DNA of 64,000 bases from Candidatus Bathyarchaeia archaeon (GCA_038870975.1 JAVZJD010000001.1:640001-704000), one strand, 5' to 3'; shown: positions 2,194-16,580, numbered from the stretch's first letter. Notes: generated by a model from the sequence alone, not told the origin. A program made the numbers and translations.

Positions 2194-4417
2194 ATGCCTA
2201 GGTATAAGACGACGGCTGAAATCCTTAGGATAATTAAGGATAAGGAGCTTATTCGAAAGGCTTAAGGCTAGAACCTTAAGCCCGAAAAATATAGGTATTA
2301 TAGCTCACGTAGATCACGGTAAAACCACCATGTCTGATAGTCTTCTCGCTGCCTGCGGACTGCTTTCACCATCAGTAGCTGGTCAGGCCTTAGCATTAGA
2401 CTACATGGAGGAGGAACAGCAGAGACAAATGACTATTAAAGCCGCTAACGTGAGCCTCTACTATGAATATGAAAATAAACCGTACGTCATAAATTTAATA
2501 GATACCCCTGGACACATAGACTTTACAGGGAAAGTTACAAGGTCTCTACGGGCAATAGATGGGGCTGTTGTTGTCGTAGATGCTGTTGAAGGTGTGATGA
2601 CACAAACAGAAACTGTAACGAGACAGGCTTTAGAAGAGCGTGTTAAACCAGTACTATACATCAATAAGATCGATAGGTTGATCAACGAACTCAAGCTCTC
2701 ACCGCAGAAAATACAAGAAACAATTGTTAAGATAGTCAAGGATTTTAACAGTTTAATCGAAATGTATGCCGAACCAGAGTATAGAAACACTTGGAAAGTT
2801 AGCTTCACAAACAACAGCGTAGCATTAGGCTCTGCAAAGTACAAGTGGGGGTTTACACTTAAAACTGCCCAGAGGAAAGGCGTAAAATTCTCCGATGTTG
2901 TAGCGGCTTATCAAGAGGGCAACATAGATCATTTGGTGAAAGCAGTTCCACTCCATGAAGCAATATTAGAAATGGTTATCGAGCATCTCCCCCCACCCCA
3001 TGTTGCTCAAAAGTATAGAATACCTAAGATTTGGAGAGGCGATCTATCTTCTGATGTCGGTAAGGCTATGCTAGAATGTGATGACAATGGCCCCGTAGTC
3101 ATGTGCGTCTCCAATATAACTGTCGACCCGCAAGCAGGTATAGTTGCTACTGGTAGATTATTTTCAGGGACCATAAATTCAGGTGATAACATTTATCTGA
3201 TAGGCGCTAAATCCTACAGTAGGGTTCAACAGGTCTGTATATACATGGGACCCAATAGAGAAATCGTCGGCAGTCTATCGGCTGGAAACATACCAGCTCT
3301 ACTAGGACTTGATAAGGCTAGGGCAGGTGAAACAATCTCATCTGTGCAGGATATTGTGCCATTTGAAGCCGTCAAATATGTGACCGAGCCTGTTGTAACT
3401 ATAGCGATAGAGCCTAAATATAGTAGAGATTTACCTAAACTAGTTGATATATTGAATAGACTTACAATAGAAGATCCAAACTACGTAATCAAGATCGACC
3501 AAGAAAGTGGAGAATACCTACTCTCAGGAATTGGACAAGTACATCTGGAAATAGCTTTAACTCTAATAGGTAAAACCGGTTTAGAAATCGTAACATCTCC
3601 ACCAACAGTTATATATAGAGAGAGCATCAGGAGCGCGGCGGGACCATTTATGGCTAAATCTCCAAACAAACATAATAGAGCATTCATAAGCGTTGAACCA
3701 CTAGACCCTGAGATAGTAGAGCTTATAACCTCAGGTCAACTTAATGATTCCTTAGATCGAAGGACAATAGCTAACATTCTTAGAGAGCATGGATGGCCTG
3801 CTGAAGAAGCTAGAAACGTTTGGAGCATAGACCAACATGGATGTATTTTAGTGGATAGGACTAAAGGTATCCAGTACCTTAACGAAGTTAAGGATTATAT
3901 AGTTTCAGGGTTCCTCTCAGCTATGGACGATGGGCCGCTTACGAGAGAGTATGTTAGAGGTGTAAAGGTTAACCTTGAAAACGCTGAATTACACTCCGAC
4001 CCTGCACACAGAGGCCCAGCTCAAATAATACCAATGGTTCGTAGGGCGATCTATGCATGCCTTCTATCGGCAGATCCAATCCTACTTGAACCTATAATGA
4101 AGCTTGTGAGTAGGGCTCCGACTGAAATGGTTGGCGCTCTTACAAAAATCATTACATCTAGAAGGGGACGCATTTTAACAATAGATCAAAAAGAATACGT
4201 TATTCAAGTTGAAGGAGAAATACCTGCTGCTGAAACATTCGACTTAGCGAATGTTATAAGATCGGCAACATCTGGTAGGGCTTTTTGGAGCCTACCATTT
4301 TCAAGATGGGCTCCAGTGCCATCATCTATGCTGTCTCAACTCGTAAGTGAAATACGAAAGCGTAAGGGATTACCTCCAGAACCCCCGAAGGCTGAAAACT
4401 TCATGGATAAAGACTAA
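2194..4417 (+). CDS. fusA: Translation elongation factor aEF-2, join(2194..2257,2289..4417), 730 aa after removing a 31-nt BHB intron
   Basis: Exon 1 reads MPRYKTTAEILRIIKDKELIR. Exon 2 continues NIGIIAHVDHGKTT, DTPGH, NKID and the diphthamide loop HSDPAHRGPAQ. The ORF track starts at internal Met 2330 and misses the P-loop. Confidence 0.95.
2258..2288 (+). other. Predicted BHB (tRNA-type) mRNA intron in the EF-2 gene
   Basis: Central helix TTCG 2252-2255/CGAA 2283-2286; AAA bulges at 2256-2258 and 2287-2289; 9-bp intron stem GGCTTAAGG/CCTTAAGCC. Canonical cuts restore both the frame and the conserved motif. Confidence 0.9.
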
Positions 4418-13882: not shown

Positions 13883-14003
13883 GGTTGCCGGCCATAGGGT
13901 GTGGGTCCGACCCGTTCCCATTCCGAACACGGAAGTCAAACCACACCACGTCTCCCTTCTCCCTAGTGGGAGACCCTAGGAGAGGAGGGGGATGCTGGCA
14001 ACC
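13883..14003 (+). rRNA. rrf: 5S rRNA (unlinked)
   Basis: 121 nt with terminal helix GGTTGCCGGC/GCTGGCAACC and the conserved CCCATTCCGAACACGGAAGTCAA loop. TATA-like TTTATATA about 30 nt upstream. Confidence 0.95.
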
Positions 14004-16491: not shown

Positions 16492-16580
16492 TGGGCCCGC
16501 CGGGACTCGAACCCGGGACTTCCCGCTTTCTACGCTCTCCTCCGCAGGCGGGTGTCCTATCCGTGCTAGACGACGGGCCC
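16492..16580 (-). tRNA. tRNA-Arg(GCG) with a 14-nt intron at 37/38 (16528-16541)
   Basis: Acceptor stem GGGCCCG/CGGGCCC, anticodon stem CCCGC/GCGGG, T-arm CCGGG-TTCGAGT-CCCGG. Intron AGGAGAGCGTAGAA has a CTGC/GTAG helix and an AAA bulge. Confidence 0.93.

Follow-up and report, generated by a model that had tools for sequence, protein, structure and literature searches.

The closest described precedent for a bulge-helix-bulge (BHB) intron in an archaeal protein-coding sequence is found in the pre-mRNA of cbf5, the gene for the aCBF5 pseudouridine synthase, in the Desulfurococcales and Sulfolobales (Watanabe 2002; Yoshinari 2006; Yokobori 2009, PMC2738675), and broad-specificity heterotetrameric EndA enzymes cut relaxed motifs as well as the cbf5 pre-mRNA (PMC2738675, PMC5829648). 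A 2020 paper states explicitly that BHB introns are known from within the coding sequence of cbf5 and from a Haloferax 5' UTR (PMC7714728), and the Haloferax case is a small correction to a preliminary description of the locus studied here, which knew cbf5 as the only well-documented archaeal mRNA intron. Full-text literature searches found no coding-sequence BHB intron other than that of cbf5, and also no report of an intron in the gene for elongation factor EF-2, including in papers on EF-2 evolution and on Caldiarchaeum.

The insert described here interrupts the aEF-2 gene of Candidatus Bathyarchaeia archaeon, from a thermophilic, hot-spring Bathyarchaeia-type lineage of which Candidatus Bathyarchaeota archaeon QZM_A2_bin_24 and B24 are the nearest named relatives. 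Unless stated otherwise, positions refer to the window, i.e. the whole stretch of 64,000 nt that was analysed (GCA_038870975.1 JAVZJD010000001.1:640001-704000). We consider it very probable that positions 2258-2288 constitute a genuine archaeal splicing-endonuclease (BHB-type) intron in the coding sequence of the single aEF-2 gene; there are no RNA data, and splicing is inferred by elimination and by analogy with cbf5.

The interrupted EF-2 gene

The features of the locus are as follows:

2194-2257, + strand: aEF-2 exon 1, 21 codons (MPRYKTTAEILRIIKDKELIR) and the first base of an Asn codon, with start codon ATG 2194
2250-2291, + strand: whole predicted bulge-helix-bulge motif
2250-51 with 2290-91, + strand: exon helix TA/TA, 2 bp
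2252-55 with 2283-86, + strand: central helix TTCG/CGAA, 4 bp
2256-58 and 2287-89, + strand: bulges AAA (5') and AAA (3'), 3 nt each, on opposite strands of the helix
2258-2288, + strand: predicted mini-intron, 31 nt, with cuts after the second base of each bulge
2259-2282, + strand: inner intron hairpin, 9-bp stem GGCTTAAGG (2259-67)/CCTTAAGCC (2274-82) with loop CTAGAA (2268-73)
2263-2265, + strand: TAA stop, read in the frame of exon 1 as codon 3 of the intron
2289-4417, + strand: aEF-2 exon 2, bases 2 and 3 of the Asn codon followed by IGIIAHVDHGKTT..., 708 codons, with the stop at 4415-4417
2330-4417, + strand: open reading frame given by gene callers, beginning at the first in-frame ATG (695 aa) and lacking both exon 1 and the P-loop NIGIIAHVDHGKTT

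The frame opened by ATG 2194, which lies a short distance after a run of G residues (2182-2187), reads MPRYKTTAEILRIIKDKELIR, then K and A, and then reaches TAA 2263-2265, and the +1 frame gives the P-loop NIGIIAHVDHGKTT from position 2288 onwards. The conserved start is ATG 2194, since an ATG further upstream is out of frame in a relative (L007). Each bulge lies 3' of its own strand of the central helix, as in pre-tRNA. Excision of 2258-2288 would leave 64 + 2129 nt, equalling 730 codons plus a stop, with the predicted join ATT CGA A + AT ATA GGT encoding I-R-N-I-G (...IGIIAHVDHGK...) and with ELIRNIGIIAHVDHGK as the predicted Lys-C peptide across the junction; because runs of A flank the intron, excision of 2256-2286 or 2257-2287 would give the identical product. 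When the sequence was read again, the coordinates, frames, motif layout, 31-nt cut and 730-aa product of the preliminary description all proved correct, as did the 23-residue peptide that it expected from unspliced mRNA, which can give no more than this because the stop lies only three codons into the intron. Its term "canonical" needs a small correction: the exon helix is minimal, with 2 bp here and one conserved pair in relatives (70% of cells paired), and across the group the predicted motif is of the relaxed HBh' form rather than the strict hBHBh' form.

In the pathway that we propose, TTCG of the exon would pair with CGAA of the intron in the pre-mRNA, giving two 3-nt bulges, one per strand; the host EndA would cut after the second base of each bulge, RtcB would join the exons, the 31-nt intron would probably be circularised, and the joined mRNA would be translated into an EF-2 of 730 aa whose P-loop is intact. 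That cleavage and ligation take place in vivo is inferred, as is circularisation of the intron. A search of Rfam with positions 2000-2500 gave no match at E-values up to 1. A self-splicing group I or group II intron was rejected as a candidate, since the ribozyme core needs hundreds of nucleotides and the insert has 31, with no Rfam match.

The 76-aa peptide spanning the predicted junction aligned over 100% of its length, ungapped and with 87% identity, to uninterrupted 730-aa EF-2 proteins, and the Pfam domains of exon 2 are those of EF-2. This is the sole EF-2 gene in the genome (92.9% complete, 2 contigs), with the next-best matches being distant GTPases (E ~1e-4), and hence the intact second EF-2 that according to the preliminary description would have refuted the intron is absent from the genome at this level of completeness. 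When two conceptual peptides across the junction, one for this genome and one for the lineage commonest in the metagenomes, were searched against the protein collection, the best uninterrupted proteins were 87% and 93% identical, respectively, and no assembled spliced cDNA was found there with either peptide. A degenerate pattern for the exon-exon junction had no match in JGI metagenome contigs.

The expectation that the gene would be miscalled was met, as the NCBI and Logan gene calls consist of the 695-aa ORF from ATG 2330. Database records contain the exact 695-residue product for six contigs, among them NCBI GCA_038882875.1 and the Logan assembly of SRR27170999, and no gene is called over exon 1 in public annotation. 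The fact that gene callers find this long ORF, together with the existence of processing-only substrates of EndA such as rRNA precursors (PMC7714728), could be taken to mean that the BHB motif is cut without joining of the exons, or that the two pieces are expressed apart (as a 23-aa peptide and a protein with ATG 2330 or a non-standard codon as its start), with the structure only regulating or inactivating the mRNA. We consider this very unlikely, as the exon 2 frame contains no ATG, GTG or TTG ahead of the P-loop, the first being at 2330, and the open stretch upstream of the P-loop is as short as 6 codons in relatives. A product from ATG 2330 would be without the G1/P-loop motif, which is required by translational GTPases, and the genome contains no other EF-2. 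Exon 1 is furthermore under protein-level constraint: its peptide is kept in 16 intron-bearing relatives with many synonymous differences, which argues that exon 1 is translated as part of the protein.

Conservation and pairing of the insert in relatives

The class to which the host belongs was represented by 17 species genomes from four families, and the insert is present at the identical codon in all genomes with an EF-2 N-terminus (15/15); the two without a detectable N-terminus are 72% and 90% complete. Families f11, f22 and f42 also have it, as does MAG S4B2_HD70, and searching JGI metagenome contigs by sequence pattern yielded 90 stretches with the insert. Genomes and metagenome contigs were pooled into 68 distinct junction sequences, in which the length of the insert ranges from 26 to 44 nt, with 29, 26 and 13 sequences in the modulo 3 classes 1, 2 and 0, respectively. 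Cutting after the second bulge base restores the junction in all relatives.

In an alignment of 15 sequences, 92.9% of the cells were paired and 10 of the 15 pairs changed on both sides; for the inner stem, 8 of 9 pairs change on both sides in relatives. None of 500 shuffles reached the observed values, and sliding the partners by one column gave 54.5% at most. The comparison of relatives for presence of the insert and for compensatory stem changes, proposed in the preliminary description as a check, was therefore positive on both counts. All 68 distinct sequences have a paired central helix, whose second pair, joining an exon base to an intron partner and left free by the metagenome search pattern, is C-G in 57 and U-A in 11, without a single mismatch. 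Covariation extends to the two exons, with base 2251 of exon 1 and base 2290 of exon 2 changing from A-U to G-C, these being position 1 of an Ile/Val codon and position 3 of an Asn codon. RNAalifold found the central and inner helices de novo, and did not predict the exon helix. The variable length across frame classes, the presence of stops and the compensatory pairing together suggest that the inserts are RNA elements which are removed, and not translated sequence.

The same data bear on translational recoding without splicing, be it a frameshift, a hop of the T4 gene 60 type or stop readthrough. The insert in this genome has a length of 3n+1, so that a +1 shift would formally reconnect the frames, and a stable hairpin follows the frame break; however, homologous inserts occur in all three modulo 3 classes, each with an in-frame stop, and thus no one rule of recoding can account for them. 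A landing at the CGA or CGG downstream would lead into AAA-ATA-TAG, which is the wrong frame and includes a stop, the gap to be bypassed varies between 26 and 44 nt and has no fixed design, and the insert evolves as paired RNA rather than as codons, making recoding extremely unlikely. A decaying pseudogene or an assembly or sequencing artefact is hardly conceivable, even though the gene is interrupted and the genome metagenome-assembled, as an identical insert is present in six contigs including the NCBI MAG and an independent Logan assembly (with the same 31 nt on both contigs displayed), which rules out the assembly artefact that the preliminary description had allowed for, every relative carries an insert, as do 90 metagenome stretches, exon 2 keeps an intact 708 aa in each class relative with a complete gene and is 91-93% identical within the genus, and there is only this one EF-2 gene. 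Each of these alternatives fails against the results, and a spliced BHB intron remains our preferred reading.

A second BHB mini-intron site in EF-2 was found 18 nt downstream of the first, between AH and VDHGK, in other Thermoproteota, namely in family f18 (L020, L090, L091), family f32 (L092, L093) and a Bathyarchaeia MAG (L037). The introns at this site are 30-42 nt long and have central helices GCCC/GGGT, GCCC/GGGC or GCGC/GCGT, in which the exon wobble base covaries with the intron. In a quick tree of EF-2, in which L021 and L037 were unresolved, the host's own class formed one clade with 100% support, and the f18 sequence was placed among intron-less Caldarchaeales-type sequences. This placement, and the lack of resolution for the Bathyarchaeia site-2 sequence, suggest that site 2 was probably gained more than once, or has often been lost. 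A different kind of insertion was seen in Candidatus Calditenuis sp. PSP.bin.8, where an intein is located within the EF-2 P-loop (L049:1380-1560; ...NGVVVHN then TTTTDSLL).

Chance expectation and processing enzymes of the host

The minimum-free-energy fold recovered the inner stem, the 5' bulge and three of the four central pairs, and favoured a shifted register, in which the exon helix has 6 bp and the 3' bulge 5 nt; the z-score of the fold was -2.7, with 2 of 200 shuffles folding equally well. Both strands of the genome (1.85 Mb) were scanned for motifs with two 3-nt bulges in which the central helix consists of Watson-Crick pairs only and the inner stem has 9 bp without a mismatch, which gave three sites of this structural quality, compared with approximately one expected by extrapolation from site counts that drop about fourfold with each added pair. 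Among these is C1:635873-635902 on the + strand (TCCC/GGGA and a 9-bp stem), located 4.1 kb ahead of the window; it is a hairpin that is in frame, lacks a stop and lies within an uninterrupted ORF, and looks like a chance motif that makes a useful negative control. With three equal motifs, one of them an ordinary coding hairpin, the bare structure is near chance level and was rejected as proof of an intron. What places the EF-2 insert, as a predicted intron, far beyond chance is its location at the exact frame break, the restoration of a colinear EF-2 by the predicted cuts, and the covariation in relatives. A genome-wide BHB scan for split genes, filtered for ORFs restored after excision, was not discriminating, as it gave approximately 1100 matches and shifted cuts performed equally; real and deliberately shifted cut sites were still equal under stricter filters.

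Two separate genes with an EndA domain are present in the genome, in the regions C1:251571-251813 and C1:270239-270493; they encode 186 and 185 residues, and PF01974 matches twice, with 105 and 83 bits. The 186-aa protein matches the catalytic subunits of Sulfolobus, Aeropyrum and Pyrobaculum with E-values from 6e-45 to 1e-35 and is clearly a catalytic-type paralogue. The second is divergent, matching the structural chains of A. pernix only weakly (~1e-5), and on our reading of its sequence it appears to be without the catalytic His and Lys. Such a pair would fit the broad-specificity heterotetramer, and the host EndA is probably a heteromer of a catalytic subunit and a structural paralogue; this subunit composition is inferred, and the structural role of the second protein rests on weak similarity and on our reading of the missing residues. 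RtcB is also present (PF01139, 494 bits). Its gene, at C1:62226-65000 on the minus strand (L088, L089), matches the profile in two pieces, positions 1-50 and 49-426, which are approximately 1.4 kb apart within one open frame of 986 residues, and probably contains an intein.

Other interrupted genes were seen in the same genome. The cbf5 gene of the host is split at the catalytic Asp codon by a 17-nt insert (C2:281640-281656, minus strand; L098:1558-1574) with central helix CTCT/GGAG, bulges AGA and ATA and a nearly absent inner stem, excision of which restores HGGTLDPPATG; it thus appears that the host already needs mRNA splicing for this textbook gene. Within the window, a tRNA gene with a short insert after the anticodon loop, probably tRNA-Arg(GCG), is located at 16492-16580 on the minus strand (tRNA-??? 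according to ARAGORN, and tRNA with 50.5 bits according to Rfam), and a 5S rRNA gene at 13884-14003 on the plus strand (Rfam, 73 bits).

The in-frame stop and comparison with described introns

A stop in the frame of exon 1 lies inside the intron in all 68 distinct site-1 sequences, at the third intron codon in 65 of them (TAG 51, TAA 11, TGA 3) and at codon 4, 5 or 6 in the other three, with the caveat that these counts are inflated by shared ancestry. The stem positions neighbouring the stop vary freely, and the type seen most often (GGCG-TA-GGC ... GCC-T-CGCC) leaves the T of TAG unpaired. Site-2 introns likewise always contain a stop, at varying positions. We infer from this pattern that the stop may be conserved by selection for early termination on unspliced RNA; its role remains an inference. 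Early termination makes sense where transcription and translation share a compartment, and where an intron of 3n length would otherwise add 10-12 residues beside the P-loop. A further possibility is that the intron is not a mere passenger but a fail-safe and control device, in which the capacity of EndA and RtcB would determine how much EF-2 is made, tying elongation capacity to tRNA and rRNA maturation, and in which recurrence at two P-loop sites would reflect selection. This reading builds on the location of the intron in the first 70 nt of coding sequence, and on the retention of the stop even where its T must bulge from the stem; if it were true, ribosomes on unspliced RNA would be released at once. 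We regard it as unlikely, and a coupling of EF-2 supply to stable-RNA processing is speculation.

If splicing takes place as inferred, the tRNA-splicing enzymes must be needed for EF-2 synthesis throughout whole lineages of uncultivated Thermoproteota, and an essential, highly expressed translation factor is added to cbf5, the sole coding-sequence case since 2002 in the literature searched. Archaeal pre-mRNA splicing hence appears to be more than a curiosity, and the question arises how ribosomes are kept off unspliced mRNA in the absence of a nucleus, to which the conserved in-frame stop suggests one answer. There are also practical consequences, as EF-2 is a standard phylogenetic and completeness marker. 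In public annotation of these genomes, EF-2 either lacks exon 1 and the P-loop or is entered as a partial "GTP-binding protein", and gene finders for archaeal MAGs need a BHB-aware step.

With regard to described systems, the archaeal tRNA and rRNA introns (Marck and Grosjean 2003; Thermoproteales 16S/23S, PMC4496867) share the motif and the enzymes EndA and RtcB with the EF-2 intron, but their substrates are stable RNAs, and many of the rRNA introns carry homing-endonuclease ORFs, which the EF-2 intron does not. The 5' UTR intron of Haloferax volcanii HVO_1309 (Schwarz et al. 2020, PMC7714728) is likewise a case of mRNA as a substrate of the tRNA splicing endonuclease; it is located in an untranslated leader, so that the reading frame is independent of it, and the Haloferax EndA is homodimeric, in contrast to the heteromer inferred for the EF-2 host. 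The greatest likeness is with cbf5: both are short, ORF-less introns in protein-coding sequence with predicted cuts between bulge bases 2 and 3, both mostly take the relaxed BHB form, for which a link to a hetero-oligomeric EndA exists in the case of cbf5, and both are conserved between orders, vary in their interior, are present in some lineages and absent from others, and lead to gene-prediction errors. While splicing of cbf5 was demonstrated by cDNA and in vitro cleavage, that of EF-2 is inferred. The EF-2 intron differs further from that of cbf5 in that its host gene encodes an essential translational GTPase, in its occurrence in Bathyarchaeia-type and Caldarchaeales-type Thermoproteota, in its location 64 nt from the start codon in a gene with two sites 18 nt apart, and in its conserved stop codon, which is read in the frame of exon 1 as the third codon of the intron.
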